Source: Candidatus Aenigmatarchaeota archaeon (GTDB taxonomy: Archaea; Aenigmatarchaeota; Aenigmatarchaeia; CG10238-14). Taken from it: a stretch of 64,000 bases of DNA. Position numbers and translations under genes: made by a program. Each line of letters begins with the position of its first letter. Position 1 is the first letter of the stretch. The stretch covers positions 10,320-74,319 of the forward strand of contig JAWBZR010000003.1 in NCBI GenBank assembly GCA_044343545.1, given 5' to 3'. The notes under the pieces are model-generated. The model ran no database searches. It was not told the origin of the DNA and saw only the letters and a program-made list of their open reading frames with translations. Below are positions 28,676 through 49,463 of the stretch, piece after piece.

Positions 28676-29347
28676 CTAAATAGGAACTCCTCTTGAACAA
28701 CGATAACAATCAAAATTGTTTCCACATGGTTCTCGTACACAAATACCAAACCCACAGCTTTTAGAACATTCACCTAATGTTTGAAGACCACAAAAGCTAC
28801 AAGGTACTATAGTTGGAGGTGTCGGTGTTGTAGATGTGATTATAGTAGGTCTAGTGGTTGTTGGTTGAGTTGTTGTGGGTAGGGTGGTTGTTGGTTGAGT
28901 TGTTGTGGGTAGGGTGGTTGTTGGTTGAGTTGTTGTGGGTAGGGTGGTTGTCGGAAGTGTAGTAACTGTATAAGCAACATAAGGAGAATAGTAAAACGTG
29001 AGTGTTTGAGAATAACCTTTGTTAAAAACCATTAATTTATGCATACCTTCACTTAAACTCCAACTTGCTATAACTCTACCAACATTGTTTGGTTGAATAC
29101 TTCCACCATCAATACTAAAACTTACTTGTGTGCCGTCTACAACAATCTTTAAATTATTCGCTAAAATAGGTTCGGTTCCCAAGTTAGAAATAACTATTAT
29201 ATTTCCAGATACTTCCAATATTTGAAATGCATTTTGTGTTTGCCTTTGTGCTATGTTGTTGATAAAAAAATATGCGCTCCCAGCTAAACCTATGGTTATA
29301 ACTACGAGTAAAAGTGTGGCTATGACGCTTGAAATACCTTTTTTCAT
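28676..29347 (-). CDS. archaeal type IV pilin-like protein (class III signal peptide) with Thr/Pro repeats and Cys-rich C-terminal domain
   Basis: MKKGISSVIATLLLVVITIGLAG fits the KG|IS FlaFind-type cleavage motif plus hydrophobic stretch (DUF361-like). (TTLPTTTQPTTT)n. C-terminus CSFCGLQTLGECSKSCGFGICVREPCGNNFDCYRCS. Confidence 0.6.
   Translation of the reverse strand: MKKGISSVIATLLLVVITIGLAGSAYFFINNIAQRQTQNAFQILEVSGNIIVISNLGTEPILANNLKIVVDGTQVSFSIDGGSIQPNNVGRVIASWSLSEGMHKLMVFNKGYSQTLTFYYSPYVAYTVTTLPTTTLPTTTQPTTTLPTTTQPTTTLPTTTQPTTTRPTIITSTTPTPPTIVPCSFCGLQTLGECSKSCGFGICVREPCGNNFDCYRCSRGVPI
28854..28947. repeat. tandem repeat, 30-nt period, 3 copies (TTLPTTTQPT linker)
   Basis: Unit gtggttgttggttgagttgttgtgggtagg begins at 28854, 28884 and 28914. 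Confidence 0.75.
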
Positions 29348-31116: not shown

Positions 31117-33438
31117 TTAAATATTTTTAAATCTAGAATGTCTCCAACCTTTACCTACTATATAGCCACTTTTTTTCAGTCGTGGATAATAAAACCATAA
31201 TAATATTGCTAAAAATATCAAGGCCAATGCTATGGCCGTCCATTTGAAAAATGTAGCTACTGTTAAACCTGTAATTTCTCTCTTTTCTTGCAGTGTTGTC
31301 GTAGTAGAAACAGGTGTTGTTGTTATACTCTCCTTGACTTGCAAATACATCGTTTTGGCATAAGTTCTCGTGCCATATTCAGATTTTGAAGGAAATCTAA
31401 AGAAAATTTTGTAAGTGTAAATCTTTGCATTTTCAGGTATATGAATTTGCATCCTCATAATCTTTTCTTGTTTTGGCTGCAAAACATCGATTTCCTTTGG
31501 CTCGAACGCATACCATCTAACATCGAAGCCTTCACTATCAACTAAAGGATAGATATCATAAATTGGATAATCTAATGGATTGTAGAATTTTATTTCGATT
31601 GAAACTTTTTCGCCTTGTAAGAGCTCCACTTTGCTTGGCAGAGTGATGTTAATATCACCTTGCTCTCTAAAAATTAATGTGGTTGTCGTTCCTTCGCCAA
31701 CCCTCCCTCTCGAATATTCGTAAGCTAGCTCGTAAGAAATCACATACGATTTCGATAACTGATTATTATTTTCATTCCTTTCAAACACACTATTTTGTTG
31801 ATCGACTATTGCTTTGATTTCATGATGTCCTTTGGGTAAATTTTGAATCTCTAAATTTACTACATATTGCTGGTTTGCATCGAGAGATGGAATGTTTTTA
31901 CTCTCAAGCAGCGTTGAATCAAACAAAACAACAAGATTAAAGTTTCTTGCAATGCCACTTCCTATGTTTTTGGCCGTGATCCTTACGTTTAGTTTTCCTC
32001 CTTCAGTTGGCTCATCCAAAAAATTTATTGATTCTATTGTTAAATCTGGCAAACCTATCAAAAAACCTCTATCATATATATAATCATAATTACCATCTGC
32101 GTCTATGTCTATAGCATACACCCCATATTCTTTCATAAACACATTAGTTATCATTCCTCTACTAGGATCCCAATATTTTTCATAAATTCCATCCTTACCC
32201 AAATCTACCAAAAATTGTCTTGAATTATCGCCATACACGTTTATTGGCAACAAATTATAATCTCCGATGAATGGTTGTGTGGGGAGGATGTACTCGTTAT
32301 TTAATAACCAATTTACGGAATTCTTGAACATCAACTCAACATCGTCTGTCCAATAGATCGGCTCCGCTATGCCAAAAAAAACTATCCTTGCTGAAGTGAT
32401 ATTATTATTTAACAACAAAGTTCCTGGCTCTGCGTAAGCTATAACAGCATAGTTGCTTGAGCTGGTTAAAGAAGCTGCGACAGATAAAGGTGAGCGAAAC
32501 AGCTCCACGTTTAAAACTGGTTGATTGTTAATTATATGCGCTCTTACCCTTGCATTTAATTGATAACCGTGAAGCATTGTTGAATTATCCACTATAGTTA
32601 TGTAAGTGGGGTTGCTCGAAAAAACACTACCAATAGCTCCTGGATGGACCCAACCAAAATCATCTGGATACACAGAATCTATGACCAAAGTGGGTTTACT
32701 ATTAACAGGCAAAGAAGCGACAAAACTGTCCAGATGCTCGCTTGCATACACATTCGAAGGTCTTCCTGCTATTATTATTGCTGAAAAAGAATTAAAGTCA
32801 TAATTTTTATAATTAGAGTTGTCTATTAGCATTACATCATGATGCATGTCTTTCAATATTCTATGAATTCTGTATTCGTGCACATAATCTAAATCGGTTG
32901 AGTTTTTCACTATTAAAGCAATGTTTGCTGCTTGAGTTAGAGGTAAAAACATCAAAAGAAGCATCAAAATCTTACCTTTTTTTGTACGCATAAACATCAA
33001 GATGGCTAAAAGGATCAAGGGCAATAAAAGAAAGTAGTAAGGTGGATTGCTTGATTTTTTTTCACCTGAAGCTATTATTATTATTTCTGACTGCAAGGCA
33101 ACCGGAATTTCACCTTCTTTTGTGTAGGTGACTACCACGCCTCCCTCGTATATTCCAGGTTTATCAACAATTAAAGTAAAGTTTTCTTGTCTCAATTCTC
33201 CCGGTTTTAATTCAATCTTTTTCGAAATGCGAATTTTGTCTGTAATATTTCCTATGGGAGTAAAGCTCACGTTGACGGTTTCGTTGTTATTATTTTTCAC
33301 TTCTATGAAACCATGCCAACTGTTGGTTTGCGTTAAATTTATTCTTGCAATCATCCTTGGCGGTCTTACATAAACTTCTAAAGCGTAAACAAAAGATATG
33401 CTTAAAAGTAGTAATAGGAGGATTAATTTCCATCTCAT
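31117..33438 (-). CDS. large secreted/surface protein, apparently two signal-peptide-bearing modules fused in frame
   Basis: Start moved to MRWKLILLLLLLSISFVYA (signal peptide). Residues ~135-160 of this CDS (165-190 of the track ORF) look like a C-terminal TM + basic tail (YYFLLLPLILLAILMFMRTKKGK). A second signal-peptide-like segment ILMLLLMFLPLTQA follows. C-terminus is Thr-rich + TM (FFKWTAIALALIFLAILLWFYY) + basic tail. Confidence 0.5.
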   Translation of the reverse strand: MRWKLILLLLLLSISFVYALEVYVRPPRMIARINLTQTNSWHGFIEVKNNNNETVNVSFTPIGNITDKIRISKKIELKPGELRQENFTLIVDKPGIYEGGVVVTYTKEGEIPVALQSEIIIIASGEKKSSNPPYYFLLLPLILLAILMFMRTKKGKILMLLLMFLPLTQAANIALIVKNSTDLDYVHEYRIHRILKDMHHDVMLIDNSNYKNYDFNSFSAIIIAGRPSNVYASEHLDSFVASLPVNSKPTLVIDSVYPDDFGWVHPGAIGSVFSSNPTYITIVDNSTMLHGYQLNARVRAHIINNQPVLNVELFRSPLSVAASLTSSSNYAVIAYAEPGTLLLNNNITSARIVFFGIAEPIYWTDDVELMFKNSVNWLLNNEYILPTQPFIGDYNLLPINVYGDNSRQFLVDLGKDGIYEKYWDPSRGMITNVFMKEYGVYAIDIDADGNYDYIYDRGFLIGLPDLTIESINFLDEPTEGGKLNVRITAKNIGSGIARNFNLVVLFDSTLLESKNIPSLDANQQYVVNLEIQNLPKGHHEIKAIVDQQNSVFERNENNNQLSKSYVISYELAYEYSRGRVGEGTTTTLIFREQGDINITLPSKVELLQGEKVSIEIKFYNPLDYPIYDIYPLVDSEGFDVRWYAFEPKEIDVLQPKQEKIMRMQIHIPENAKIYTYKIFFRFPSKSEYGTRTYAKTMYLQVKESITTTPVSTTTTLQEKREITGLTVATFFKWTAIALALIFLAILLWFYYPRLKKSGYIVGKGWRHSRFKNI

Positions 33439-33540
33439 ATTCTTCACAACTGATGTATAGTAAAAAATTAAAGTATTTAAAATTTGATTTAACGCTATTC
33501 GATAGAAAAATTTTTTCATTAACATTTGCATATTTCATAC

Positions 33541-34002
33541 ATGGACGTGTTTTTAAGATTGTTAGATGTCTTGCTGGAAGCAAAAGTAGAATTTACTATA
33601 ATGTCTCATGAACCTGTAACTACTTCAGAAGAAGCTGCAAAAGTGAGAGGAACTACTCTTGAAAGTGGTGCTAAAGCAATAATAGCAAAGACAGACAGAT
33701 TTTTTATGCTTGTCTTGCCTTCCAACTTGAAAGTGGATTCAAAGAAAATTAAAAAGATTTTTGAAACCAAGAATTTTAGATTTGCCACGGAAGAAGAATT
33801 ATATAAGCTGACATCATGCAAAAAAGGCGCTGTTCCTCCGTTTGGTTTTCTTTTTGGTTTGGACACTATTGTTGATGAAGAATTGTTGAAACAAAAGGAA
33901 ATAAATTTTAATGCTGGAAGAAATGACAAATCAATTAACATGAAACTAGAAGATTATCTGAAAATTGTAAAACCAAAAATAGAAAAATTCAGCCAAGATT
34001 AA
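33541..34002 (+). CDS. YbaK/ProX-family aminoacyl-tRNA deacylase
   Basis: Conserved ESGAKAIIAK ... CKKGAVPPFGF (GxVxPFG hallmark of YbaK/ProX). Start moved to internal ATG MDVFL. Confidence 0.7.
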   Translation: MDVFLRLLDVLLEAKVEFTIMSHEPVTTSEEAAKVRGTTLESGAKAIIAKTDRFFMLVLPSNLKVDSKKIKKIFETKNFRFATEEELYKLTSCKKGAVPPFGFLFGLDTIVDEELLKQKEINFNAGRNDKSINMKLEDYLKIVKPKIEKFSQD

Positions 34003-35465
34003 CGTTTTTTATTGCTCATTGCCCTTTCTCTTATTTCCTTTATGACTTTCTTTCTTATTTTTTCGTCTATGTCTCTTTTCGGCTTCACAGGCAGCTCGAC
34101 TTGCTTTTCATCTTCTGGTTCTTTAATTTTTATCTCGACGAAATCTTCCGCATAATCTTTTTCTTCTTCAGGAAATGCGTATACCGAGCCTTTTGATTTT
34201 TTCTTTTCGCTTATTAGAGGTAAAGCTGCAAGTGATACTAGCAACACTATAGGTATCGCAGCAAGATACCAATAATTGCTTGCAAGTTGCCCTGCTCTTG
34301 CAAAGAATCCTGTAGATTCTTGTTTTTGTTGAATAGTTGTAGTTGTTGTTGCTAAAGTTGTTATGACTTTTTCTGTTACAGCCAAAGTCATTGATTTTTC
34401 ATAATTCACTCCAGTTTTTGCAACTAGCTTGAATACATATGATTCTGGTTTAGTGTTTTCTGGAACTTTAATAGTAACTGTAAGGTTTACAGTTTCGCCT
34501 TTTCTTATTGTTTGCACGGATGATGGTGTTATGGTAAACCAATTTACATCCAATCCGGCAACTTGAAAATCGACATTATTCAAATCTTTAGCTGCATAAA
34601 AACTTCCCTTGATGGTTTTTTCTCCTCCTGTTTGGACTTGAATGAACGATGGAAAATCATAAAAACCTGTAGACTTTCCTGAGCTACTGCTACTGCTACT
34701 AGACCATCCACTGCCACTACTGCTACTGCTCGAACCTGAAGTACCGCTTGAAGGTGTATTTTGAATAATTTCCACGGTTGTTGTAGTTGTTGTTAACACT
34801 AAGGTTGTTGTAGTTGTAGTTGCTACAGTCCTGCAATAACCTGTAGTTGGTGAACCAACCCATTCACAACCAGGTATTAAATTACATGTGGCAAAACTCC
34901 TTCCATTACAATTGGAAGTTTGCTGGAGAGTTGTGGTGGTTGTTAATTGAGTTGTTGTAGGAGATGTTGAAACATATGTAGTTGAAGTAGTTGTCGTAGG
35001 AGATGAAGACGAGCCCGTACAGTAGCCTGATATGCCTATGGATATCCAAATACAACCGGCTGCTCTACAGGCTGAAGAAGTTGTATAACTTGAGCAATCT
35101 CCTCCCTGCTGAAGAGTGGTGGTAGTGGTTGTGCTATAAGATCCTGAAGTTGCATAAACATAACATTGCAAGCTTGCAGAAATATTTGTTACAGCATCTG
35201 CATAGGTGACAAGCACTTGCGCCGCCATATTTGATGGCGCTCTAAATTCTACAAGTTGAGACGCACCGGGAGCTAATTGAAAATTATTTGGAGAAGCTGA
35301 AATAGGCGTTCCTAAAGTGTTTATAAAAACTCTTACTGGCACGAAATCTCTGTTGTAAAACCTGTAGTTGCCGGGAGATTCTGGAGTACCGCAAGATACA
35401 GTAACTGCTAAAACTGGATGTAGCATTGCCAAAATCACGAAAATTAATGAAAAATACTTTTTCAT
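33999..35465 (-). CDS. Thr-rich surface protein with 'AVTVSCG' N-domain, two 4-Cys modules and C-terminal TM (family B, copy 0)
   Basis: Signal MKKYFSLIFVILAMLHPVLA|VTVSCGTPESP. Modules DCSSYTTSSACRAAGCIWISIGISGYC and CNGRSFATCNLIPGCEWVGSPTTGYC. Poly-Thr/Ser linkers. TM AAIPIVLLVSLAALPLI + KKKSKG tail. Confidence 0.55.
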   Translation of the reverse strand: MKKYFSLIFVILAMLHPVLAVTVSCGTPESPGNYRFYNRDFVPVRVFINTLGTPISASPNNFQLAPGASQLVEFRAPSNMAAQVLVTYADAVTNISASLQCYVYATSGSYSTTTTTTLQQGGDCSSYTTSSACRAAGCIWISIGISGYCTGSSSSPTTTTSTTYVSTSPTTTQLTTTTTLQQTSNCNGRSFATCNLIPGCEWVGSPTTGYCRTVATTTTTTLVLTTTTTTVEIIQNTPSSGTSGSSSSSSGSGWSSSSSSSSGKSTGFYDFPSFIQVQTGGEKTIKGSFYAAKDLNNVDFQVAGLDVNWFTITPSSVQTIRKGETVNLTVTIKVPENTKPESYVFKLVAKTGVNYEKSMTLAVTEKVITTLATTTTTIQQKQESTGFFARAGQLASNYWYLAAIPIVLLVSLAALPLISEKKKSKGSVYAFPEEEKDYAEDFVEIKIKEPEDEKQVELPVKPKRDIDEKIRKKVIKEIRERAMSNKKR

Positions 35466-35541
35466 TTTCTCACCACTGATTTATCACTTTAAAGAAATAA
35501 GGATTTATATTTTATTTGAAAATTTTATAGAAATTTTTTTT

Positions 35542-35994
35542 CTATTTTAACCAACAATACCAATCTGCCTGCTTAAAGTCTTTCGGCCTATCGAACCCTT
35601 TTATGTAAGGTTTTATATCTATGACAGGTGTTTTGTCTATTGCATCCAGACCTTTAACATACAATACATTTTTTTGCACTTTTTGCAGCCTTACCAATCT
35701 TAGCCCAATCTTATTTGGCCTATATTGACTTCTTGAAGCAAATACACCTACTTTTGGTAGCTCTTTTACTGTTATTGGTCCGGGATATGTTTCTATTTCT
35801 ATTTTTTTGGCTTTGTGAAGATAATATATTACAAATATATGAGAAAATTTTTCTATACCTTTCAGGCCCGATTCATATTTTTTGTTAATCACTATCTTTG
35901 ATATGGTTTTTGTTGCCAACCCTTTTTCGCAAGCTTCCCATGCTTGCTGAGGTGTTTTATAGCTTGAAGAAACGTAACCTATTGGAGTTTTCAT
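35542..35994 (-). CDS. trmO: TsaA/YaeB-family tRNA (m6t6A37) methyltransferase TrmO-like protein
   Basis: N-terminal MKTPIGYVSSSYKTPQQA. RPNKIGLRLVRL and GLDAIDKTPVIDIKPY match the TrmO/UPF0066 signature (RPNPIGLS..; DGTPVLDIKPY). Confidence 0.7.
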   Translation of the reverse strand: MKTPIGYVSSSYKTPQQAWEACEKGLATKTISKIVINKKYESGLKGIEKFSHIFVIYYLHKAKKIEIETYPGPITVKELPKVGVFASRSQYRPNKIGLRLVRLQKVQKNVLYVKGLDAIDKTPVIDIKPYIKGFDRPKDFKQADWYCWLK

Positions 35995-36061
35995 AAAAAC
36001 AATATTTTAGTAAAAAATAAAAAAATAAAAAGGCCAAGAGAGTTACAAAGTTCTAGCAACT

Positions 36062-37108
36062 TTAGATTGCTTTACCAAATACCATTATTTGGCCCTGTGT
36101 GAAGGTACCAATGCATGGCATTGGATACGTTAACTTGAATTCTACTTCTGCCAATCCACCGTTTGTTAATATGTTATCTGCTGGTGATGGTGATAATCCA
36201 TTGCCTCTGAATGTCAATGGACTACCTCCATAGCATGTGTTTTCAGTCCAGCTAATTACACATTGTGCGTTTTGATTGTATTCTGTCATTTGTCTCCAGC
36301 CATCTTCTCCTTGCCATTGAGAGCCAGACCAACCTCTGTATTTCATGTATGTCTCAACATCTATCTTGTTTGTATCTGGACATTTTGATGCACCGTTCGG
36401 ATCATACAAATCTGTAGCGGCTATATACATCCACATGTTAACGCCGCCTTCTGCTGTGTTTCTTACTTGTAGTCTATTCAAAGAGTGCACTGTTCTTTCT
36501 TCTGGTGTATCAGCTCCATATGGTAGAGGTTCAAATCTTATTGGTTGTCCGTCATTTGTGGACACAGATAGAGACAATACTGGATTGAAATACCATGTCT
36601 CTACGTGTGTTCCGTCTGTTGGCACATTAGCAGAGTTGTAGGCTGTTAGCTTGACTTCGGTATAGCCATACCATTGTGGCTCTACCGTTATCAAGCATTC
36701 AAATGCTTTATCTGTTTCAAGATTTACCTCGCCCATGCCGTTGCATGTCATGTTTTTTGGCAAGCTAACTGGGTTGCACACTACTTCTGGGTTACCTCCA
36801 ACTCTTGCCTTTAGCCAACCAATATCCAATGCACCATTAGGATCCCTTACTATGGCAAAAAGTTGAATTTGCTCGCCTGTAAAGGCATAAGAGCTTACTC
36901 TGTAGTCAAATGGGTTTATGCTTGCACCGGATCCTAAAGATGCATTTGCTCCTATTGTTATATTTCTGTCATATACGCAGATTCTTGGTGTTTGGTCGCC
37001 AGGGCCTGCGCTTGCTCCCACGCCGCCGACTGCTACATCAGCAGCTACTAGGGAAACTACCATAGTTGCTAGAACCAAAGATACTACCAATGCTGCTAAA
37101 TATTTCAT
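36062..37108 (-). CDS. secreted protein, family A copy 1 (paralog of 39721-40761); visibly higher G+C than surroundings
   Basis: Sec signal MKYLAALVVSLVLATMVVSLVAA. Shares with the 39721 ORF the blocks CNGMGEVNLETDKAFECLITVEPQWY / PIRFEPLPYG / NTAEGGVNMWMYIA / C-terminal YPMPCIGTFTQGQIMVFGKAI. Confidence 0.55.
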   Translation of the reverse strand: MKYLAALVVSLVLATMVVSLVAADVAVGGVGASAGPGDQTPRICVYDRNITIGANASLGSGASINPFDYRVSSYAFTGEQIQLFAIVRDPNGALDIGWLKARVGGNPEVVCNPVSLPKNMTCNGMGEVNLETDKAFECLITVEPQWYGYTEVKLTAYNSANVPTDGTHVETWYFNPVLSLSVSTNDGQPIRFEPLPYGADTPEERTVHSLNRLQVRNTAEGGVNMWMYIAATDLYDPNGASKCPDTNKIDVETYMKYRGWSGSQWQGEDGWRQMTEYNQNAQCVISWTENTCYGGSPLTFRGNGLSPSPADNILTNGGLAEVEFKLTYPMPCIGTFTQGQIMVFGKAI

Positions 37109-37321
37109 CTTTGGTTCACCCCTAATAAGAAATAGATGAGATATTAATTATTTAAACTTAATTCGACATAAAATTTAAGATTTTAGCTTATAAATAATAA
37201 AAAACTCATTTCTTAAACAAATAAGCATTTTTAACACTTTTTATTAAATTTATTTCTATTTTTTTTGAGTTTTTTTATATTATATATGAAAAATCTGTAA
37301 CCACTTTACAGTTGCTATTAA

Positions 37322-37978
37322 TTATTGACATTTCGATACAAACGTGGAAAATATGCAAAATCCTAGTATTGATCTGCCTAGGCACTTTCTCTCACATACA
37401 TTGCTGCAACATTCGCTGTTACTTTGACAAAATTGTCCTTTTATTAAACAAGATTGAATTTGTTGTGTGGTTGTTGTTACAGTCGTTAAAGTTGTTTGTG
37501 CCATATAATCCTTGTTAACACATCTTCCCATTACCATATCGCCTATCCATTTACAGTCATGGCTGGAGACGCATAGAGAAAAAGATCTTTTATTGCAAGA
37601 AGATATCGTGGTTGTAGAAAACTGGGTAGTTTCGGTTGTTGTAAATACAGTTGTTTGAGTTGCAATCTCTTCTGACTCATTTGTTATTTTATAGGCTCTA
37701 AACAAACTTGCACCAAATACAATATCTCCAGGTAAAACCCTAAAACCAAATGAGCTACCAACATCGTTTGCATACTTACATACCCCAGGAGTACAAGTCA
37801 TTACCAAACGAGGTGGTGTTATATTTCTACTCATAGAGTCTACTTCTTCATATAGCTCACATCTTTCAGCATCATTAGGGCAAACAAAGTATGGATGAGA
37901 TGTGTAAGCTGAATATATTTCTGTCTTTTTTGCAAACACTAGTGGTATTAGCAATATTAAAATCAATAATTTTTTCAT
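37322..37978 (-). CDS. Thr-rich secreted protein with 4-Cys module (family B, copy 1)
   Basis: Signal MKKLLILILLIPLVFA. Module SSCNKRSFSLCVSSHDCKWIGDMVMGRC plus a second module CLIKGQFCQSNSECCSNVCERKC. Poly-Thr linkers. Confidence 0.5.
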   Translation of the reverse strand: MKKLLILILLIPLVFAKKTEIYSAYTSHPYFVCPNDAERCELYEEVDSMSRNITPPRLVMTCTPGVCKYANDVGSSFGFRVLPGDIVFGASLFRAYKITNESEEIATQTTVFTTTETTQFSTTTISSCNKRSFSLCVSSHDCKWIGDMVMGRCVNKDYMAQTTLTTVTTTTQQIQSCLIKGQFCQSNSECCSNVCERKCLGRSILGFCIFSTFVSKCQ

Positions 37979-38033
37979 AGTCTTTTATTGGATGATGAGA
38001 TTTTTAATGAGATAAGGAATTAAAATAGAAAAT

Positions 38034-38429
38034 TCAGATATTTTTGTTTACAAATTTTTTTGCTTCTTTTATAAAATACTCTGCCTCCTTGATCAAAAGC
38101 TCTACTTCATCCTTCTCTATTACAACATTTAGATAATAGTCAGCACTTTCTCTTAATTCAAAAGATTTTCTTAATATTTTACCCATTTTTTTATCTGCTT
38201 TTTTTTCTTTAACTATTTTTGAGCCAAACTCGGAAATTAACCCTGCGTGTGTTTTGGCATCATATCCGATTGCATTGAGCATAGCTTTGGCAGCATAAAA
38301 CAAAGAGTAATATATTCTATTTGCAGCATCCTCTATTAAATCTTTGCTTAAGAGCAATTTCGCAGCTGACAGCCTTTTTTCTGCCTTCTCAATTTCTCCT
38401 TTTATTATATCTTTTGTAATTTCATTCAT
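38034..38429 (-). CDS. HEPN-domain protein (toxin component of HEPN/MNT pair)
   Basis: All-helical, 131 aa; AKAMLNAIGYDAKTHAGLISEFG and LRESADYY resemble PF05168 HEPN. Overlaps the upstream MNT gene by 8 nt. Confidence 0.55.
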   Translation of the reverse strand: MNEITKDIIKGEIEKAEKRLSAAKLLLSKDLIEDAANRIYYSLFYAAKAMLNAIGYDAKTHAGLISEFGSKIVKEKKADKKMGKILRKSFELRESADYYLNVVIEKDEVELLIKEAEYFIKEAKKFVNKNI

Positions 38430-38721
38430 TGTAAATCACCCTGCCTTTGATTATTTCAAGCACAAAAGGATCTTTTTTATTTATCTTTTTGTAAAAATCA
38501 TCTTTGGTAAAAAATTTTAGAGAAACAACTTTACCATACTTGAATAATATCTTATCAGCAATTTTTTCAGCCTTTTGCTTAATTTTTTTATTATTAGAAA
38601 TTATTGCTAAATCTATATCCGAATCAAGCCTATAGTTGCCCCTGGCAACAGAACCGAACAATATTATAGTTGCCTTTAATCCTTCAAACTCTTTTATTAT
38701 GTTTTTATGATATTTTAGCAT
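38422..38721 (-). CDS. minimal nucleotidyltransferase (MNT antitoxin component)
   Basis: ILFGSVARGNYRLDSDIDLAII is the GSxxxG..DxD Pol-beta-type NTase motif. Confidence 0.7.
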   Translation of the reverse strand: MLKYHKNIIKEFEGLKATIILFGSVARGNYRLDSDIDLAIISNNKKIKQKAEKIADKILFKYGKVVSLKFFTKDDFYKKINKKDPFVLEIIKGRVIYNE

Positions 38722-38745
38722 AATTATATTTTTTTACTTTAATAA

Positions 38746-39597
38746 TTAAAAAACACATATCGTCTTCCATTCCAAGCAAACAAGTCTTAACCATCTATTA
38801 CAAACAGTAGAGCAAATTGTTGTGGTTGTTGTTGGGGTTGTAACAGTTGTGGTTGAAGTGGTTGTGGTTGTGTTTTGAGTTGTAACAGTTGTGCTTGAAG
38901 TTGAAATGCATTTACCAAATCTTATATCACCTGTCCATCTACAATTTGAATTTAACTGACATTGCCAAAAATTCAAAGACTGACAAATATTTGTTGGTGT
39001 AGTGATTGTTGTTGGCGTTATATTTGTGTTTTGAGTTGTTGACGTCATTGTTGTTGTCGTGGTTGTTGTCTGTGAATTTTCTGGAACCGTAGTTGTTGTT
39101 CCATAAATACTTGCACAATAACCTGTAAACATATTGCCTATCCATTTGCAACCTGGCAAAGTGGCACAGTTATAAAATGATCTTCCGTTGCAATCATATA
39201 CCACTTGAGGTGTCGTTGTTGTGGTTGTAGTAGTTGTCATCACTGGAGTAAAACTTCCTTCTGGCAAAGCATAATATTTGCATTCTAAAGAAGAAGAAAA
39301 ACCATTTCTTGTATCTGTCACAAAAACAAACAAAGTAGCAACCGTTCCAGAATATGATCTAAAAGATATTACTTTGCTTTCATTCGGCTCTAAATAAAAA
39401 AGATTTGTTGGATATATGTTGATCAAAGAAAATTTATTATCGATATAAACCTTAACAGTAAAATTTTCTGGATTAGTAAAAATATAATCACCTGTAAAAA
39501 CATTATTTGGCATATATGGTCTGCCGCATGAAACAGTAACTGCAAAAACATCTTTGATTAAAAAAAGCATAAAAATAATTATCAGAATTTTTTTCAT
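38746..39597 (-). CDS. Thr-rich secreted protein with 'AVTVSCG' N-domain and two 4-Cys modules (family B, copy 2)
   Basis: Signal MKKILIIIFMLFLIKDVFA|VTVSCGRPYMP (paralogous to the 33999 ORF N-domain, incl. SLECKYYA vs SLQCYVYA). Modules CNGRSFYNCATLPGCKWIGNMFTGYC and CQSLNFWQCQLNSNCRWTGDIRFGKC. Confidence 0.5.
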   Translation of the reverse strand: MKKILIIIFMLFLIKDVFAVTVSCGRPYMPNNVFTGDYIFTNPENFTVKVYIDNKFSLINIYPTNLFYLEPNESKVISFRSYSGTVATLFVFVTDTRNGFSSSLECKYYALPEGSFTPVMTTTTTTTTTPQVVYDCNGRSFYNCATLPGCKWIGNMFTGYCASIYGTTTTVPENSQTTTTTTTMTSTTQNTNITPTTITTPTNICQSLNFWQCQLNSNCRWTGDIRFGKCISTSSTTVTTQNTTTTTSTTTVTTPTTTTTICSTVCNRWLRLVCLEWKTICVF

Positions 39598-39720
39598 TTA
39601 ACACACCTCTTAATGTATTTTAAAATAAAATTAAACTATTTAAACAGAGATAATGTTACCCAAAAGTGGATTTGATTTAAGCTATAAAAAATAAAAAAAA
39701 TGGAAAAAAAATAGCAAAAC

Positions 39721-40761
39721 TTAAACTGGTCTTGCTATTATTAAAATACTGCCTTGATCAAATGTTCCTATGCATGGACTTGGATAATGTATCTTGAAGT
39801 AAATGTTTGCTGTTCCTTGGTTTGTCAAAATGTTTTGCATTGGTGCATCTGTTGGTACAGGCATGCCATCAAAGCAGTTGAACAAGCTGCAGCCTTTATT
39901 TGGATCATATTTTCTCATCCAAAGCCATGGTGTTTGTAAAGTTCCTGAAACAGCTCTATATGCTATACCTGTATCAGGATCTTCATCTTCGACTTGAGTA
40001 TTTCCTATCGGTTCAACATCTCTATGCCATTCTAAAACATTTGTTGTTGGGCAAATGCTTACACTGCCGGTTGATGTCAACCCTGGACCTTCACCTGCTA
40101 TCCATACCCACAAGTTAACACCTGCTTCTGCTGTATTTTTCAAAATGATATAGTTCTCGCTATCTGCCCAATCTCCTGGATTAGCTGGTTTGAATCTTAT
40201 TGGTTGATTGTCGCTTGTTGTCAATCTCATAGATATTTGAGGATTGAAATCCCAAACTTCCTCATGCGTGCTGTTAACAAAAGACATTCCTGAAACATCT
40301 AGAACAGATATCTTCACTTTGCTATTCAAATACCAAGATGGTTGTACTGTTAAAATGCATTGATAAGATCTATCTGTAGCTGGATTAAAGTTACCTAAAC
40401 CGTCACAGTTAGGTATATTTGTGATTTGAGTGCAAATAACACCTGTTGGGTCTGGCCCAAAAACTTTAACACTACCGATGTTTATCCATCCATTTGGATC
40501 TCTGACTGTTACATTGAATTTAATTTGCTCCCCTGTAAATGCATATTGGCCTGTTCTTAGATTTAAAATATTTATTCCGTCAACTACCACTTCTCTATTT
40601 TTCACGCATATTTGTTTCGGTGCAATAGCTGGACCTGCTGTAATGTTCACTGAACTTAGAACTGTTTGATAGTTTTGTGCATGCAAAAGTGGCAATAGTA
40701 GCTCTACTGCTACTAATAATAAAATTATTTTATATGATTTTTTCAATTTATCACCCCGCAA
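39721..40761 (-). CDS. secreted protein, family A copy 2
   Basis: Sec signal KSYKIILLLVAVELLLPLLHA. Conserved blocks CDGLGNFNPATDRSYQCILTVQPSWY / PIRFKPANPG / NTAEAGVNLWVWIA / C-terminal YPSPCIGTFDQGSILIIARPV. Confidence 0.55.
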   Translation of the reverse strand: MRGDKLKKSYKIILLLVAVELLLPLLHAQNYQTVLSSVNITAGPAIAPKQICVKNREVVVDGINILNLRTGQYAFTGEQIKFNVTVRDPNGWINIGSVKVFGPDPTGVICTQITNIPNCDGLGNFNPATDRSYQCILTVQPSWYLNSKVKISVLDVSGMSFVNSTHEEVWDFNPQISMRLTTSDNQPIRFKPANPGDWADSENYIILKNTAEAGVNLWVWIAGEGPGLTSTGSVSICPTTNVLEWHRDVEPIGNTQVEDEDPDTGIAYRAVSGTLQTPWLWMRKYDPNKGCSLFNCFDGMPVPTDAPMQNILTNQGTANIYFKIHYPSPCIGTFDQGSILIIARPV

Positions 40762-41135
40762 TATGAATTCAAGTAATTTATTTTAGAAAAAAGATTTTTA
40801 TTTTAGTATAATGCCACAATGAAGTAAATCTAATATAAAATAGAAAATTAACTTATTAAAAAGGAAAAATTATTTTCTAAAATCTATTAATTGTGAATTT
40901 TTTGAAAAAAAAAATTAAATTCGTTTATTTTCTCTTAGTTTCATTGCATTGATTAAAATTTCCAGGTCGATCTCTTCCTTACATTTAGGACAAGTCACTT
41001 TCCAAAAAACATCTAATTGTTTGTTATGCATACAAATTATCTTTACTTTTTATTTAAGAAAAATTTTTGTATTTTATACAATATATTATAATTTTTACTA
41101 TGAAATGGTTTTTAGCTTTTATAAGAAATAGAAAA

Positions 41136-43115
41136 TTAAATTCTATTTTGAACCAACCAATTTACCAACTTATTAAAAAGCAAGTTGCCTGCATCGTTCA
41201 AATCTTTTGGTGTGCTTGAAGCGAACCAACCAACATACGCATAATTGTTTGCGACGAACAAAGTGGATGATTGATGATTTCCAGAGTCGGCCAAGTCGGT
41301 GACGGAGGAAGCTAAATTGTAATCTTGTACGACATTGAATTTTGGTTTATTCATGATATTTACAAATCCAGATAAACCTTGAGTTATTTGGTGAGTTTTA
41401 GTTATGTATAAAGATTCGGATCTGACAAATCCCACATATCCTTTCGTATATCCAAATCTCCAACCTGCATTAACATAAGGTTGATCTGCTATTTCCAAGA
41501 ATGGAATGCCCGACTTGTGTGCAGAAAATGCTGGATGAGATCCATCTATCTTGCAAGCTCTTAGCTCATCGCTGCAAGCTATGAGTTTGTAATTTCTTAT
41601 TTCGCTTCCCCAAGACCAATAACCTTTAGCGTCAACAGTCCAACCTCTCTCTTCAAGCCACCTTATCGTATCTTTTTCTATTCCGTGATTGCATTCGTCT
41701 GTTCTGCAAATGAATGCTATATCTCTATAAACAGGTAAATCTATTTTGAAAAACCACGATACCTCAGGTAATTCGTTTCCATTTAGATCTTTACACCTTG
41801 CATAAACTACATAAGTATTGTTGGGTAATTCGAAATCAATTTGGTATTCATGCAATGGAAGATTGTATGGGAATTCGAAATCCATTGACTCGTAAGGTTT
41901 TCTGACATTCAAGGAAAATTTGCACACCGTCTTTTCATCAGTTAATATTCTTATCAAAGGTTTTCTTGTATTCACGTTACCTATAGGAGAATATTCTAAG
42001 ATTTTTGGTAATTTAACTTCACTCTCTATTGATTCTGAAGTTAACCATTCCAATATTCTATTAAATATTGTCGCACCACTATCTGTCAAACCTTCGCTTC
42101 CTATTTCGTTAAACCAACCAACATACGCATAATTGTTTGCGACGAACAAAGTGGATGATTGATGATTTCCAGAGTCGGCCAAGTCGGTGACGGAGGAAGA
42201 TAATAAATCATCCGGAATTACATTGAACTTGCTTCCTATCAACACGTCCACGGAACCTGAAAATCCACTGGTTATTTGATGATTTTTAGTTATGTAGAGT
42301 TCTTCATTGTTTGTCAATCCCACATATCCTTTCGTATATCCAAATCTCCAACCTGCATTAACATAAGGTTGATCTGCTATTTCCAAGAATGGAATGCCCG
42401 ACTTGTGTGCAGAAAATGCTGGATGAGATCCATCTATCTTGCAAGCTCTTAGCTCATCGCTGCAAGCTATGAGTTTGTAATTTCTTATTTCGCTTCCCCA
42501 AGACCAATAACCTTTAGCGTCAACAGTCCAACCATTCTCTGCCAAGAATGATATCATAGATTTTTCTATTCCGTGATTGCATTCGTCTGTTCTGCAAATG
42601 AATGCTACCTTACCTAATTTTTCTCTAATTTTAAAAGTTGTGTTAGCATAATATCCCTTGTTTTCAGAAAACAAAATTACTCTTGCTTCATAGTTGCCAA
42701 ATTGCAAATCTTCAAAGGACCATAATATTTCCAATTCAACATGTTTAGTGATATCGTATCCGTAATATCCATAACCGTATCCGTAATCTAAATTTTCACG
42801 CTTCAATTCCACTGAAACAAATCTTTTATCTTGCTGCGAACATTCACTATGAAATCCTTCATCTAAACTTGAAAGAATGCACAAACTAGTTATATTATTG
42901 TGCTCTTCTAAACCTCTTATTTCAATCGAGATATTTTCTATTAAATTCCATTCGTCTATGTTTTCTATTTTCACGTTGAGCTTGACTAAACTACCCTTGA
43001 AGTAAGTTTTCTTATCAGTAAAAATTTGAATGTTAAAGGCCGTTGTGCTTTCTGAGAATATTATAAGTAGAATTAAAATCGAAGTTGAAAGAATAGGTAA
43101 AAATTTTTCATTCAA
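41136..43115 (-). CDS. secreted protein with two copies of a ~200-aa Cys-containing domain (recent internal duplication)
   Basis: Signal ILSTSILILLIIFSESTTA. Domain FICRTDECNHGIEK..GWTVDAKGYWSWGSEIRNYKLIACSDELRACKIDGSHPAFSAHKSGIPFLEIADQPYVNAGWRFGYTKGYVG occurs twice, nearly identical. Confidence 0.55.
   Translation of the reverse strand: MNEKFLPILSTSILILLIIFSESTTAFNIQIFTDKKTYFKGSLVKLNVKIENIDEWNLIENISIEIRGLEEHNNITSLCILSSLDEGFHSECSQQDKRFVSVELKRENLDYGYGYGYYGYDITKHVELEILWSFEDLQFGNYEARVILFSENKGYYANTTFKIREKLGKVAFICRTDECNHGIEKSMISFLAENGWTVDAKGYWSWGSEIRNYKLIACSDELRACKIDGSHPAFSAHKSGIPFLEIADQPYVNAGWRFGYTKGYVGLTNNEELYITKNHQITSGFSGSVDVLIGSKFNVIPDDLLSSSVTDLADSGNHQSSTLFVANNYAYVGWFNEIGSEGLTDSGATIFNRILEWLTSESIESEVKLPKILEYSPIGNVNTRKPLIRILTDEKTVCKFSLNVRKPYESMDFEFPYNLPLHEYQIDFELPNNTYVVYARCKDLNGNELPEVSWFFKIDLPVYRDIAFICRTDECNHGIEKDTIRWLEERGWTVDAKGYWSWGSEIRNYKLIACSDELRACKIDGSHPAFSAHKSGIPFLEIADQPYVNAGWRFGYTKGYVGFVRSESLYITKTHQITQGLSGFVNIMNKPKFNVVQDYNLASSVTDLADSGNHQSSTLFVANNYAYVGWFASSTPKDLNDAGNLLFNKLVNWLVQNRI
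41225..41716. repeat. direct repeat copy 1 (intragenic, ~490 bp)
   Basis: Blocks 41225-41311 and 41431-41645 are identical to 42113-42199 and 42319-42533 (offset 888). Intervening blocks are diverged. Confidence 0.8.
42113..42604. repeat. direct repeat copy 2 (intragenic, ~490 bp)
   Basis: See copy 1; mosaic identical/diverged pattern. Confidence 0.8.
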
Positions 43116-44905: not shown

Positions 44906-46219
44906 TTAAGGGTTAATTTGAAAAAGATACAGAGGAACTCCTCTCCTCGCATGCTCAATTGAAAAAGGAGTTCCTAACATCATAGCTTCTTCAGGAGTTA
45001 ATCTTCGTACCGAAACACTGTAACCACCAATCTTTCTTATAGCTGTAGGTAATTCACATTCAAAAAGAATTATACTAAAATTTTTATAATCAGGATAATT
45101 TATGAGCAAACCGTTTAATGGCAGACCTCTTGCAGTTATTCCCAGAACAGCATCAGTAGCTTCTATTGCATCATTAACATAGTCAGGTAATATTCCTGCA
45201 GCATAACCTCCAAGTACGGAACTAGTATTAAGTACATATACCTTTGAATAATCTGCTGCTACAACACGTTCAGACAATAAACTTGATAAACCACTTCCGC
45301 TGGGATTTACTGAGAATAATAGTATATTTCTTGGGAGCACTTCACCATTATGAAAAGGTCGTCTTAATAATACATAATTACCTTCACCGTATATTGCCGC
45401 CGCATGAGGTTGTTGTCTTAACATTCTTAACACATCTGGGTTGGGTTCCAAACCATAATAGAATAATTTTGGTGGTTTTTTAATTCCTGCCAACTCAAAT
45501 AATGGTCCTACTTTCATTGAATATCCTGGGCCTACATTCACTATAACATCAGAACCATCAAGTGCTGTTAATAATAATCTTTCAACCTCATCTATCTCTA
45601 CCTGACTTATTTCTAAATGACTATATCTATATAAATATCTTCCACTTGAAAAGAATACATCATCACCTAATCGAAGTATACCTTTTCCTCTTGCTACAGC
45701 ATTTAATATATCTGTAGGGTCTGGATACATTGTTGCTAGACTGATGCCTATAAAAACTCCATCAAAAATTGTCACAGGTCTTCCTGATGATGTTGTTCCA
45801 ACGAAAGCGTTTCTTAAATCTAATAATGGCACAGGTAAAAGTCCGTAAAGAAATTCACACAATTTTATTTCATCTTCTTCAATTTCTCGTAGATATCTAC
45901 TTTTTAAATCACCAACAAAACAACCTCTTCCTTCCATCTCTTGAAGTATTCTATATGTTTCTGTTGAAGTTAAGAGTGATTCCCGTAAAGTTTCAAGACC
46001 TTTTGGGCTGCAACCGTTACTAATAACTGAAAAATTATACATTCCCATTAAATGAGCAGCATCAAGAGGATATTGTTGCTCAAATTGTGCGGCCAATCTT
46101 TCACATACTGTTGCTTGTGGAGGTAATGGCGTTGGTGGCGGTGTTGGTGTTTCTGCACAAGCAATCCCTGCTGCAACTAAAGATGCTAATGAAAACATTA
46201 TTATCCCTCTGTTTCTCAT
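44906..46219 (-). CDS. secreted hypothetical protein, compositionally atypical (Ala/Gly/Leu/Arg-rich; higher G+C)
   Basis: Signal MRNRGIIMFSLASLVAAGIACA then PTPPPTPLPP. No recognised motif. Confidence 0.4.
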   Translation of the reverse strand: MRNRGIIMFSLASLVAAGIACAETPTPPPTPLPPQATVCERLAAQFEQQYPLDAAHLMGMYNFSVISNGCSPKGLETLRESLLTSTETYRILQEMEGRGCFVGDLKSRYLREIEEDEIKLCEFLYGLLPVPLLDLRNAFVGTTSSGRPVTIFDGVFIGISLATMYPDPTDILNAVARGKGILRLGDDVFFSSGRYLYRYSHLEISQVEIDEVERLLLTALDGSDVIVNVGPGYSMKVGPLFELAGIKKPPKLFYYGLEPNPDVLRMLRQQPHAAAIYGEGNYVLLRRPFHNGEVLPRNILLFSVNPSGSGLSSLLSERVVAADYSKVYVLNTSSVLGGYAAGILPDYVNDAIEATDAVLGITARGLPLNGLLINYPDYKNFSIILFECELPTAIRKIGGYSVSVRRLTPEEAMMLGTPFSIEHARRGVPLYLFQINP

Positions 46220-47816: not shown

Positions 47817-48395
47817 TTAATCATCCAAATTAAATGTTTTTAGAAATCTTTTCTTCACAAATTTTGGATATTTTTTTATGTATTCTTTCATTCTTTTCTT
47901 GTCAATTTTTAGTTTAGAAATTATTTTCTTATCAAGTGGTTGCTTGAAATAAATTAAATCTATTAGTGTTTTTTCTTTGTCTGAAACTGGAATAAGAAAA
48001 TTGTCGTAGTTGATTAGCTCGTATCCGAAAAAATATTTTTTGTTTATTCTTCTCACTATGACATTTGTGCCAAAAACCTCTCTCTTCCCACTTCTTATTT
48101 TTTTAGGTGTTACTATTATTGTGTTTGTTTCTTGCTCCCAAAGATTATGTATGCTTAAAGCAGCTTGCAAACCTATATAAGATGGTCTTATGGCAAACAC
48201 AATTAATGTAGGATCATCGTATAAAGTGTAAAATCCTTTTTCAATTCTTTTGATTTTGTCTTTTTTCAACAAATAATTTAACAAGACATTTGCATAATTT
48301 TCGTTTCTTGTCAAGAGTATTATATCTCTAGTACTCACCACAGGATTTTTCTTGAATAAATCCATTATTCGTGACAAATATTTTATTTTGCCCAT
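47817..48395 (-). CDS. AbiEi-like (COG5340) antitoxin/transcriptional regulator
   Basis: N-terminal wHTH-like KYLSRIMDLFKKNPVVSTRDIILLT plus a C-terminal domain. Overlaps the upstream AbiEii-like gene by 13 nt. Confidence 0.45.
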   Translation of the reverse strand: MGKIKYLSRIMDLFKKNPVVSTRDIILLTRNENYANVLLNYLLKKDKIKRIEKGFYTLYDDPTLIVFAIRPSYIGLQAALSIHNLWEQETNTIIVTPKKIRSGKREVFGTNVIVRRINKKYFFGYELINYDNFLIPVSDKEKTLIDLIYFKQPLDKKIISKLKIDKKRMKEYIKKYPKFVKKRFLKTFNLDD

Positions 48396-49039
48396 ATTTC
48401 TATCGCCTTTATTAAATCTTCCAGCTTTGGAACGGCACCTGAAATTATCAAAGTAGGTAAATTCTTTTCGTCTAACGGTGGTTTGAAATTTTTTAAAAGG
48501 TTGTTTATCAATTTTGAAATTTCTTTTTTTTCTTTTACGTAATTTAGCAAAAAGTATATATCGTAAAGATCTCTTACTTTTTGTCTTTTTTCATATGCCT
48601 TTATTTTTTCCTTAATTATTTCTTCTGGAGTTAAAGTGTAAACAATAATAAATGTTCCGTCAGATAATTCAAACTCTTTTGAAACATAGTTTTTTATGTT
48701 TTCAAAAACAACTTCGAATCTAATTATTGCATTGTTGTAGGCAAATGCTGAATATATGGAATTTTCTGTTTCTTTGAATTTTTGCGTTTGGAAGCCAATC
48801 TTTTCTAGATTTTCCCTGAATTTTTTTAATTGAGTTGAATTTTTTAGTTTTTTCGGTAAATATACATCTATATCTTCTGAAAATCTATTGCCAGAATAAC
48901 ACCTCCATATTGCTGTGCCGCCGTGTATGATAGGAGTAGTTAATGTTTTGTACATCTCAATTACCAATAAATCTTGGGCTAAAGCTATGTCTTTATGATG
49001 CTTTTTTTTGAGTTTTTTTTCTATTGGAAGTATGACCAT
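48383..49039 (-). CDS. AbiEii/DUF1814-family nucleotidyltransferase (type IV TA toxin)
   Basis: IHGGTAIWRCYSGNRFSEDIDVYLP matches the GGTAL...R.SEDIDF signature of AbiEii. Confidence 0.6.
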   Translation of the reverse strand: MVILPIEKKLKKKHHKDIALAQDLLVIEMYKTLTTPIIHGGTAIWRCYSGNRFSEDIDVYLPKKLKNSTQLKKFRENLEKIGFQTQKFKETENSIYSAFAYNNAIIRFEVVFENIKNYVSKEFELSDGTFIIVYTLTPEEIIKEKIKAYEKRQKVRDLYDIYFLLNYVKEKKEISKLINNLLKNFKPPLDEKNLPTLIISGAVPKLEDLIKAIEIWAK

Positions 49040-49463
49040 AAATATAAATTAACCATACTTATATATAAATATAATTTTGGTTGATTTAATCTAAAATTTT
49101 ATAAAATAATTTTAGAGTTTTTGGACTCCAAAACCTTAAATTAAAATACAGTTAAATTTTAATCATACCAAAATTAAATTGTTTTATTAGATTTTAATTT
49201 TTTGAATGTTTTTACATTTCATTTTTTTGGCTTGTAAGTGTATTTCTGCTTTTTTATTTTAACTTTTACTTGGTAGAATTTGTCGTTGAAGAAACATATT
49301 AAAAAATTTTATAATTTTTTAAGAATTTCCAACATTCCTTTATATCTTTTTATTATTCTAGAAATTTCCTTATCTATTTCATTTAAAGGCACTTTCATCG
49401 TATCTATTCTATCATCAGGATATATTATTTATAATGGTACCTCTATTACAGATTCTAACTATT

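Follow-up and report, generated by a model that had tools for sequence, protein, structure and literature searches.

The window analysed here, a 64-kb stretch of DNA from a Candidatus Aenigmatarchaeota metagenome-assembled genome (MAG; 100% match to P0001), carries a minus-strand cluster of genes for two families of secreted proteins, A and B, together with a minimal nucleotidyltransferase (MNT) gene and a HEPN gene, which form a predicted toxin-antitoxin (TA) pair. In the list of open reading frames (ORFs) the order of transcription is A2, B2, MNT, HEPN, B1, A1, TrmO, B0, and the eight ORFs were confirmed with the strand and the coordinates that an earlier note on this DNA had read (Table 1). 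Comparison of the window's own locus (WIN) with related loci and contigs (L001 to L024) revealed an old order of genes into which the TA pair was inserted late, a block including the pair that was moved by homologous replacement between two well-diverged lineages, and purifying selection on A1. We propose, with a probability of about 0.5, that the locus is a conserved envelope cluster in which A1 would be a self-assembling subunit of the S-layer type, B0 its stalk and the TA pair a passenger.

According to this proposal, the series (p659)-A2-B2-B1-A1-TrmO-B0-...-small transmembrane immunoglobulin (Ig) protein/CARDB protein-FtsZ would represent conserved chromosomal genes of the cell envelope. 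A1, Sec-secreted, built of two beta-sandwiches and probably encoded by one of the most strongly expressed genes in the cell, would self-assemble into an outer protein layer, an S-layer-type array, in which its short conserved N-terminal arm would make the subunit-subunit contacts. In paralogues bearing adhesin-like or enzyme-like payloads, either N-terminally or in two exposed loops, the A module would serve as a C-terminal 'foot', so that these paralogues could co-assemble into the A1 array and display what they carry. B0, a type-I membrane protein with Thr/Ser-rich and presumably O-glycosylated linkers, would tether or space the layer as a membrane-anchored stalk, like SlaB for SlaA, and B1 and B2 may be secreted relatives of the stalk with an accessory role. 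MNT/HEPN would have no role in the surface system; it would be a selfish module that inserted into the B2-B1 spacer and then travelled in the A2-to-TrmO block between lineages with FtsZ proteins 85% identical in amino acids (aa).

To our knowledge, no Aenigmatarchaeota have been cultivated or imaged in detail. Genome papers on the phylum give only generic 'S-layer' annotations (PMC8407114). A1 can be put forward as a concrete candidate for the main subunit of the Aenigmatarchaeota envelope, phylum-wide and probably very abundant; it comes with rules for its family (module always C-terminal, two insertion loops, N-terminal arm) and with B0 as a candidate membrane stalk. As candidates for attaching these episymbionts to a host, the payload-bearing A paralogues suggest themselves. 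The exchanged block, for its part, documents cleanly that surface genes with a TA pair underwent lateral allelic replacement between well-diverged DPANN lineages, and bears on how symbiont surfaces diversify. It also cautions that the position of a TA pair is not to be taken as functional coupling.

The A module and the B proteins

The paralogy of A1 and A2 suggested in the earlier note is borne out by 34% identity across ~344 aa (E 1e-60). Searches of Pfam, NCBIfam, PHROGs and PDB sequences gave nothing significant for A or B and ruled out a known-family assignment there; together with a Foldseek comparison (see below), they uphold the note's statement that neither belongs to a described family. 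A viral origin was likewise ruled out by zero PHROG matches. Although undescribed as families, family A and the B Cys module are of a familiar kind, namely secreted Ig-like archaeal surface proteins on Thr-rich stalks.

A1 consists of a Sec signal at residues 1-23 (MKYLAALVVSLVLATMVVSLVAA/DVA, with a Sec-type n-h-c region), a disordered arm at 24-41, and beta-sandwiches at 42-175 and 176-348, and has eight Cys. The AlphaFold2 model, a single chain built from a 72-sequence alignment, reached a predicted local distance difference test (pLDDT) score of 88 and a predicted template-modelling (pTM) score of 0.78; its residues 5-16 are helical (the signal helix), followed by disorder up to ~residue 40. 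Neither A1 nor A2 has a transmembrane segment or a sorting signal, the A module running to the C-terminus, and the A1 sequence contains no LPXTG.

A1 has 87 close homologues; for family A as a whole, an exhaustive profile search recovered 399 clusters at 50% identity, of which 184 have E <= 1e-30. All named members and GTDB matches are from Aenigmatarchaeota, with the exception of one partial protein labelled Micrarchaeia. The system is lineage-specific, as the earlier note had proposed. Stand-alone proteins of <=450 aa make up 182 of the 237 retrieved members, and the A module ends <=5 aa from the C-terminus in 221 of 225 proteins. The long members are of two sorts. Some carry N-terminal payloads, among them TSP3 repeats with a beta-helix, DUF4215 Cys repeats, and VWA with CBM96; others have insertions of 200-900 aa, for which there are two hotspots (profile positions ~108-125 and ~260-305). 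These two hotspots coincide with variable loops of the A1 orthologues, which vary at ~112-131, 196-204 and 284-310 and are otherwise almost invariant in their cores. In its conservation the arm at 24-41 matches the folded domains (0.62 vs 0.61-0.64). The A module behaves like a constant assembly or anchoring module that displays variable parts. A2 is restricted to a subclade, with orthologues in L007/L011 (90%) and L001 (75%) and none in L009/L012.

The N-terminal domain common to B0 and B2, also pointed out in the earlier note, was recovered: the two proteins share the signal peptide, a domain of ~85 aa and Cys modules (E 1e-20). The Cys module, C-x8-C-x5-C-x-W-x-G-x5-G-x-C, is 26 aa long and occurs five times in the window (two in B0, one in B1, two in B2), and the linkers of the B proteins contain 12-23% Thr. 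The structure model of B0 places a beta-sandwich at 21-108 and an Ig-like domain at 262-365, both with pLDDT above 90; Cys modules at 124-149 and 186-211 lie within disordered Thr/Ser linkers, and a transmembrane helix at 387-413 is followed by a Lys/Glu-rich cytoplasmic tail with a terminal helix. The B0 alignment is shallow (18 sequences, and two proteins in a search with the C-terminal half), and linkers and tail are modelled at low confidence. This Ig-like domain and the one at the C-terminus of the neighbouring CARDB protein are homologous (30% identity, E 8e-9); against Pfam NPCBM_assoc the B0 domain scores 22.2 bits, below the cut-off of 24.4.

B2 has its two 26-aa 4-Cys modules set in linkers of 23% Thr, and its orthologues end in the motif C-x3-C-x-RWLRL-x-CLEW-x3-C at the extreme C-terminus (38746-38830); its 15 homologues are all from Aenigmatarchaeota or metagenomic. 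B1 combines an N-domain of its own and one Cys module with a knottin-like 6-Cys C-terminus, CLIKGQFCQSNSECCSNVCERKC (37322-37450), for which a weak UPF0506 match was found (E 0.036). Only one module of 26-29 aa is common to B1 and B0/B2 (E 3e-7), their N-domains being unrelated.

The location of the system at the cell surface, claimed in the earlier note, is supported by the Sec signal peptides on A1, A2, B0, B1 and B2, the all-beta Ig-like folds, the transmembrane anchor and tail of B0, the Thr linkers, and the nearby CARDB proteins, type IV pilin and island of family-2 glycosyltransferases. A coupling of A with B is suggested by their conserved adjacency and by a natural fusion at L003 (1391-2296), where a signal peptide and two B-type Cys modules with Thr linkers precede a C-terminal domain resembling A domain 2 (E 1e-9).

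A1 is indeed more GC-rich than A2 (42.5% vs 37.0%; 0.33 vs 0.25 at third codon positions, GC3), for which very high expression or a different origin had been put forward. Codon evidence makes the first the better of the two. The excess lies mainly at codon positions 1 and 2, in addition to a preference for NNC codons, and the effective number of codons (Nc) of A1, 35.9, departs from its GC3-based expectation of 54.3 more than that of any other of the 51 window ORFs, A2 coming second. The NNC preference is 0.46 in A1 vs 0.18-0.39 in other genes, and 0.51 and 0.52 in its orthologues vs 0.22-0.43 in their neighbours. A foreign origin was ruled out by the nature of this excess and by the presence of orthologues in the same slot. 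Synonymous divergence (dS) of A1 is 0.5-1.1 in all lineage pairs vs 1.1-5 for other genes, no gene having a lower value in any pair. A strong Shine-Dalgarno sequence, AGGGGTGA, stands at 37116-37123, 7 nt before the ATG of A1, and the oligo-T run after its stop would be an archaeal-type terminator signal; a hairpin and T-run lie 3' of the A2 stop. A scan for bacterial sigma-70 promoters and terminators gave counts equal to those of shuffles and is uninformative for an archaeon. Taken together, the codon bias, the NNC preference shared by orthologues, the low dS, the spacer of its own, the Shine-Dalgarno sequence and the putative oligo-T terminator point indirectly to a high abundance of A1.

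The earlier note had also described the system as rapidly diversifying. This is not supported: the ratio of nonsynonymous to synonymous divergence (dN/dS) is 0.04-0.26 for all genes of the locus, 0.11-0.26 for the A and B genes and 0.14-0.19 for A1, which is 80-86% identical between lineages whose FtsZ proteins are 83-85% identical, and only the three A1 loops vary.

Gene order, TA insertion and lateral exchange

The same order of genes is found in relatives with and without the TA pair. L001 (GCA_017880035.1) has A2-B2-B1-A1-TrmO-(256 aa)-B0-...-YbaK-157 aa-CARDB-FtsZ without MNT/HEPN, and L009/L010 and L012 have B2-B1-A1-(TrmO)-B0-YbaK-157 aa-CARDB-FtsZ with neither the pair nor A2, TrmO being absent from the cluster slot in L009. 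The order is kept in L001, L007/L011, L009/L012 and L024, and partly in L003, L020 and L023. A genes have B-type genes at their flanks in L001, L003, L007, L009, L011, L012, L023 and L024, B1 lies directly upstream of A1 in L001, L003, L007, L009, L011, L012, L013 and L024, and both A-then-B0 and B1-then-A1 adjacency are conserved. MNT/HEPN occurs only in L007/L008 (GCA_038998695.1), L011, the window and its near-identical twin L024, always in the B2-B1 slot. There it replaces the middle of the spacer: the ancestral spacer is ~290 bp long, and both of its edges, including a conserved motif upstream of B1, are retained around an insert of ~700 bp. Alignment of the spacers revealed no transposon-like footprint: neither a target-site duplication nor terminal inverted repeats were found.

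A1, A2, B0, B1 and B2 each have their own orthologue in other lineages, and because of this the paralogy is taken to predate these lineages. A recent duplication is ruled out by these orthologues and by the lack of DNA repeats: long direct or inverted repeats were not found in 33999-40800, where only Thr-codon low complexity and a 33-nt match between the N-terminal parts of B0 and B2 were seen, and there are no additional A or B copies elsewhere in the 64-kb window. The mirror-like A1-B1/B2-A2 pair of the earlier note is also at odds with the orientation of the genes, which are all co-oriented, so that neither a tandem nor an inverted duplication would have produced it.

MNT lies directly upstream of HEPN, co-oriented and with an 8-nt overlap, between B2 and B1, and the identities first given to the two proteins were confirmed. 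MNT matches Pfam NTP_transf_2 (1.2e-13) and Polbeta (1.5e-11) and the PADLOC PDC-S09/M05A nucleotidyltransferase models, with an intact GS...DxD motif (GSVARGNYRLDSDID). HEPN matches Pfam HEPN (3e-16) and PDB 2hsb, AF0298 (8e-17), with which it shares KTH and R-E-x-x-D-Y motifs. The pair is a standard AF0298-type HEPN/MNT module, for which the toxin-antitoxin assignment is predicted. In gene order, overlap, GS...DxD motif and match to AF0298 it resembles the HepT/MntA-type (type VII) systems. It differs from them in the motif region of HEPN, which reads R-E-S-A-D-Y, without His, instead of the canonical Rx4-6H (AF0298 is of the same type, LREESDY; the conserved K-T-H lies away from this region), and toxicity and AMPylation are putative here; it differs also in being embedded in, and co-transferred with, a block of surface-protein genes.

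MNT/HEPN pairs are ubiquitous in archaea (PMC6393860). In the groundwater Aenigmatarchaeota locus L006 (13678-17157), three A paralogues are interspersed with two larger MNT genes, of which one has a weak-HEPN gene as its partner; such modules being common in archaea, this is probably coincidental.

The divergence between the window and L007 changes abruptly along the cluster. For A2, B2, MNT, HEPN, B1 and TrmO the dS is 0.19-0.38, and for B0, CARDB and FtsZ it is 1.4-2.0; sliding nucleotide identity falls from ~90% to ~68% within the TrmO-B0 spacer, at ~35,500. The trees are in conflict as well. By FtsZ, L007 and L001 are sisters (95% aa identity) and the window lineage is their outgroup (84-85%), yet B1, B2 and TrmO are 88-94% identical between the window and L007 and only 58-70% between L007 and L001. 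An assembly chimera was ruled out, as both configurations are reproduced in independent assemblies: that of the window in the MAG L024 (99.93% over 8,089 bp across the breakpoint) and the alternative in three assemblies, L007, L008 and L011. The dS contrast, the drop in identity, the tree conflict and the reproduced junction therefore establish that the block was exchanged laterally. It measures at least 5.8 kb (A2 to TrmO), as the contigs of L007, L008 and L011 end just upstream of A2. All three break 110-420 bp upstream of this gene (L007 1-418, L008 1-185, L011 1-110), a hint that the opposite edge of the block contains a repeat or differs among strains.

In having a surface block whose phylogeny conflicts with its flanks at a sharp breakpoint, and a low-GC glycosyltransferase island nearby, the locus resembles O-antigen and capsule loci and the S-layer and glycosylation islands of haloarchaea. 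It differs from these in that the exchange took place between lineages with only ~85% FtsZ identity, that a TA pair rides inside, and that A1, whose product is presumably the most abundant, was affected least. That the TA pair came late and is a passenger is indicated by the TA-less syntenic loci, the retained spacer edges, the identity contrast of the block and the tree conflict.

A1 as a possible layer, fibre or adhesin subunit

The closest functional parallel to the proposed envelope is SlaA/SlaB of Sulfolobales, which it resembles in the pairing of an anchorless secreted beta-rich protein (A1) with a type-I membrane beta-sandwich stalk (B0) encoded nearby in conserved adjacency, and in Ser/Thr-rich, probably glycosylated regions. 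There are differences: A1 and B0 have neither sequence homology nor specific structural homology to the Sulfolobales proteins, A1 has a length of 348 aa and SlaA one of ~1,400 aa, a coiled coil is missing from B0, which has 4-Cys modules and mucin-like linkers instead, and the A-B0 pairing is limited to a subclade, the lattice being a proposal from genes and models.

Several points weigh against the S-layer-type reading. Abundance, assembly geometry, A-B0 contact and glycosylation are deduced from genes and models, and B0 is a candidate contact of A; A1 is probably very highly expressed, as judged from codon statistics only. A1 has no membrane anchor of its own, and the neighbouring transmembrane-anchored CARDB protein (COG1361-like) is an equally plausible S-layer candidate. 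With an identity of 45-86% across the family, A1 is unusually conserved for an S-layer protein, since such proteins usually diverge fast. The A-B adjacency that the earlier note had relied on holds in related genomes and breaks down at the distant A-bearing loci L005, L006 and L015-L021, which have no B-type neighbours; because of this, B0 is not a universal anchor for family A. No homology of A1 to described S-layer families was found either (Pfam/NCBIfam S-layer models, SlaA/SlaB, csg, SbsC and others), and the literature held nothing specific on family A or on expression, proteomics or imaging of the Aenigmatarchaeota envelope.

The exchange adds a further difficulty, for A1 is a divergence island inside the block. 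It has 75-90% nucleotide identity in all lineage pairs and is no closer between the window and L007 (36062-37108 vs L007 4091-5143) than between the window and L001 or L007 and L001, whereas its flanks B1 and TrmO are 87-98% identical between the window and L007 and 52-74% to L001. In the loop at 196-204, the window matches L001, L009 and L012 and not L007. A simple single transfer does not explain this divergence, which may come from a second recombination event or from selection focused on the loops.

The distant loci hold A in 2-3 copies, often near CARDB proteins. At L005 (8307-13589) the A genes lie beside genes for Peptidase_M73 (TasA/camelysin-like), a Laminin_G_3 protein and an S24/S26 signal peptidase, with an archaeosortase (Exosortase_EpsH) gene upstream (693-1304); these may constitute a separate TasA-like fibre system.

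The arm and the payloads also allow the reading that family A consists of fibre- or pilus-like polymer subunits joined by exchange of the N-terminal arm in a donor-strand or arm complementation, with A1 as the major subunit and the armless payload paralogues as tip or decorating adhesins in the manner of FimH, which we consider unlikely. The conserved disordered arm of stand-alone subunits is missing in 25 of 27 N-terminal payload fusions, the A module is always C-terminal and the payloads are adhesin-like, as in chaperone-usher and TasA-type pili (FimH, AbpA, Sulfolobus threads), where a constant Ig-like module at the C-terminus is combined with variable binding domains at the N-terminus; the proximity of Peptidase_M73 and S26 genes at L005 is of the same tenor. 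Nevertheless, the A1 monomer is modelled with confidence and looks complete, with no self-complemented strand, the module has two domains (~310 aa) vs the single domain of a pilin, and inserts of 200-900 aa in loops would be unusual in fibre subunits. No chaperone, usher, dedicated SipW-like peptidase or sortase-like gene was found in the window cluster, only the distant L005 having Peptidase_M73/S26 nearby; homology of pilins to A is not detectable, and pilin matches are no better than those of any Ig-like domain.

Alternatively, family A could comprise non-structural two-Ig adhesins for host interaction, the CARDB protein, alone or with B0, being the real S-layer; this, too, we consider unlikely. 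Its appeal lies in the best Foldseek matches of A1, which are two-Ig adhesins and matrix proteins (SdrE, ClfB, AspA/SpaP, PrgB and RbmA; E 3e-5 to 3e-3), those to the MSCRAMM and antigen I/II proteins SdrE, ClfB and SpaP/AspA, with their tandem surface Ig-like domains, having E values of 3e-5 to 2e-4. The similarity is generic, however, because the TM-scores are only 0.16-0.28 (0.16-0.18 for SdrE/ClfB), with identities of 8-12%, and A1, unlike the MSCRAMM with their latch-bearing DEv-IgG N2-N3 fold, has neither LPXTG nor sortase and belongs to an archaeal, phylum-restricted family. The invariant charged residues of domain 1 (R70, E79, R88, D89, D133, E143 and E170) might make up a site for a ligand or a metal, the loops hold most of the variation, and the CARDB protein is conserved beside A genes phylum-wide, including loci without B genes. 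Against this, A1 combines an extreme codon bias with a low dS, which speaks for abundance at the level of a structural protein, and it is the A module that is the constant anchor and the other domains that are the variable binding part. Neither the monomer fold nor the gene neighbourhood discriminates between an S-layer-type array and the fibre and adhesin explanations.

A bolder version of the layer model would have a phylum-specific envelope in which arm-linked A1 forms the outer layer, the A module is a 'plug-in foot' by which adhesin or enzyme payloads of up to 3,000 aa, dozens in number, are displayed in the lattice, disulfide-knotted mucin-like stalks act as tethers, and whole surface blocks are swapped between genus-level-diverged DPANN lineages, HEPN/MNT promoting the retention of the incoming allele and so driving its fixation. 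We regard this combination as quite unlikely.

The model of the earlier note, an A-B cassette duplicated around a HEPN/MNT module that stabilises or regulates a fast-diversifying surface system, might draw on the place of the pair between B2 and B1, its strong purifying selection (dN/dS 0.04-0.08; 0.04 for HEPN vs L007), the MNT/HEPN genes near A genes in L006 and the fact that the laterally spread part is the TA-bearing block, but it is very improbable: the same order without the pair in L001, L009 and L012 and the old paralogy, each gene having its own orthologue elsewhere, therefore leave the duplicated cassette, with the pair at its junction or core, unsupported, B1 is not a duplicate of B2, the A and B genes evolve at low dN/dS, such pairs are common throughout archaea, and the pair behaves as a passenger of the exchanged block, with nothing to support a stabilising or regulating role. 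Returning to A1 as a layer subunit with B0 as its stalk, this remains the arrangement that we prefer.

Neighbouring genes and further features of the window

The features of the cluster and its immediate neighbours are collected in Table 1.

Table 1. Features of the A/B cluster and adjoining genes, in order of transcription where they belong to the cluster; positions are those of the window.
Feature	Position	Strand	Description
A2	39721..40761	-	Secreted paralogue of A1 in family A (346 aa); module of two beta-sandwiches behind a Sec signal peptide
B2	38746..39597	-	Secreted protein of the stalk type; signal peptide, B0-like N-terminal beta-sandwich, two Cys modules
MNT	38422..38721	-	Minimal nucleotidyltransferase, predicted antitoxin-type partner of HEPN; lineage-specific insertion
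HEPN, AF0298/UPF0332 subfamily	38034..38429	-	Predicted toxin-type partner
B1	37322..37978	-	Secreted Cys-rich protein
A1 upstream spacer	37109..37321	-	213 bp, AT-rich, TATA-like boxes
A1	36062..37108	-	Family-A protein, 348 aa
Oligo-T run TTTTTATTTTTTTATTTTTT	36010..36032	-	Directly 3' of the A1 stop
TrmO-like tRNA methyltransferase N-domain protein	35542..35994	-	Pfam TrmO_N
TrmO-B0 spacer	35466..35541	.	Recombination breakpoint (sliding identity, dS)
B0	33999..35465	-	Membrane-anchored candidate stalk protein
CARDB-domain fusion ORF	31117..33531	-	Downstream neighbour; Pfam CARDB 4e-18
p659	41136..43115	-	Secreted protein, upstream neighbour of the A/B cluster

The TrmO-like gene, whose identity was confirmed by the Pfam TrmO_N match (2e-34), is a housekeeping gene embedded in the surface cluster. 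The genomic context is that of an ordinary chromosome, with HerA, Rad50/Mre11, topoisomerase I, type IV pilin, FtsZ, GatA/GatB and AspRS around the cluster and a window GC content of ~32%.

The 804-aa ORF downstream of B0 is an in-frame fusion of a small protein (signal, Ig and transmembrane segments) with a C-terminally transmembrane-anchored CARDB surface protein, and its C-terminal Ig and transmembrane part is homologous to the C-terminal part of B0. The fusion is also present in the independent MAG L024; in L001, L007 and L009 the halves are separate genes of 155-157 aa (signal, Ig and transmembrane) and 623-627 aa (CARDB) that overlap by 4 nt. Upstream of A2, p659, to which no family could be assigned, carries an internal duplication of ~300 aa (AFICRTDECNHGIEK... 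repeated), and its homologues adjoin A genes in L009 (50% identity), L012, L020 and L005.

Further surface-related genes and a second TA pair were observed elsewhere in the window. A 437-aa ORF without a family match (44906-46219, minus strand; GC3 0.16) has an N-terminus that resembles a lipobox (...AAGIAC) and, after it, a Pro/Thr-rich stretch. At 47817-49039 (minus strand) AbiEi (192 aa) and AbiEii (218 aa) form a TA pair that adjoins a low-GC island at 49400-54600 (18-24% GC vs ~32% in the window; GC3 0.13-0.21). The island encodes three family-2 glycosyltransferases and a 788-aa Laminin_G_3 (ConA-like) protein, and is likely to be concerned with surface glycans and to vary horizontally. 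At 28676-29347 (minus strand) an archaeal type IV pilin (Pilin_N) adjoins FtsZ, and a 734-aa CARDB/SdrD_B/SpaA-like protein at 5847-8051 (minus strand) is a further surface component.

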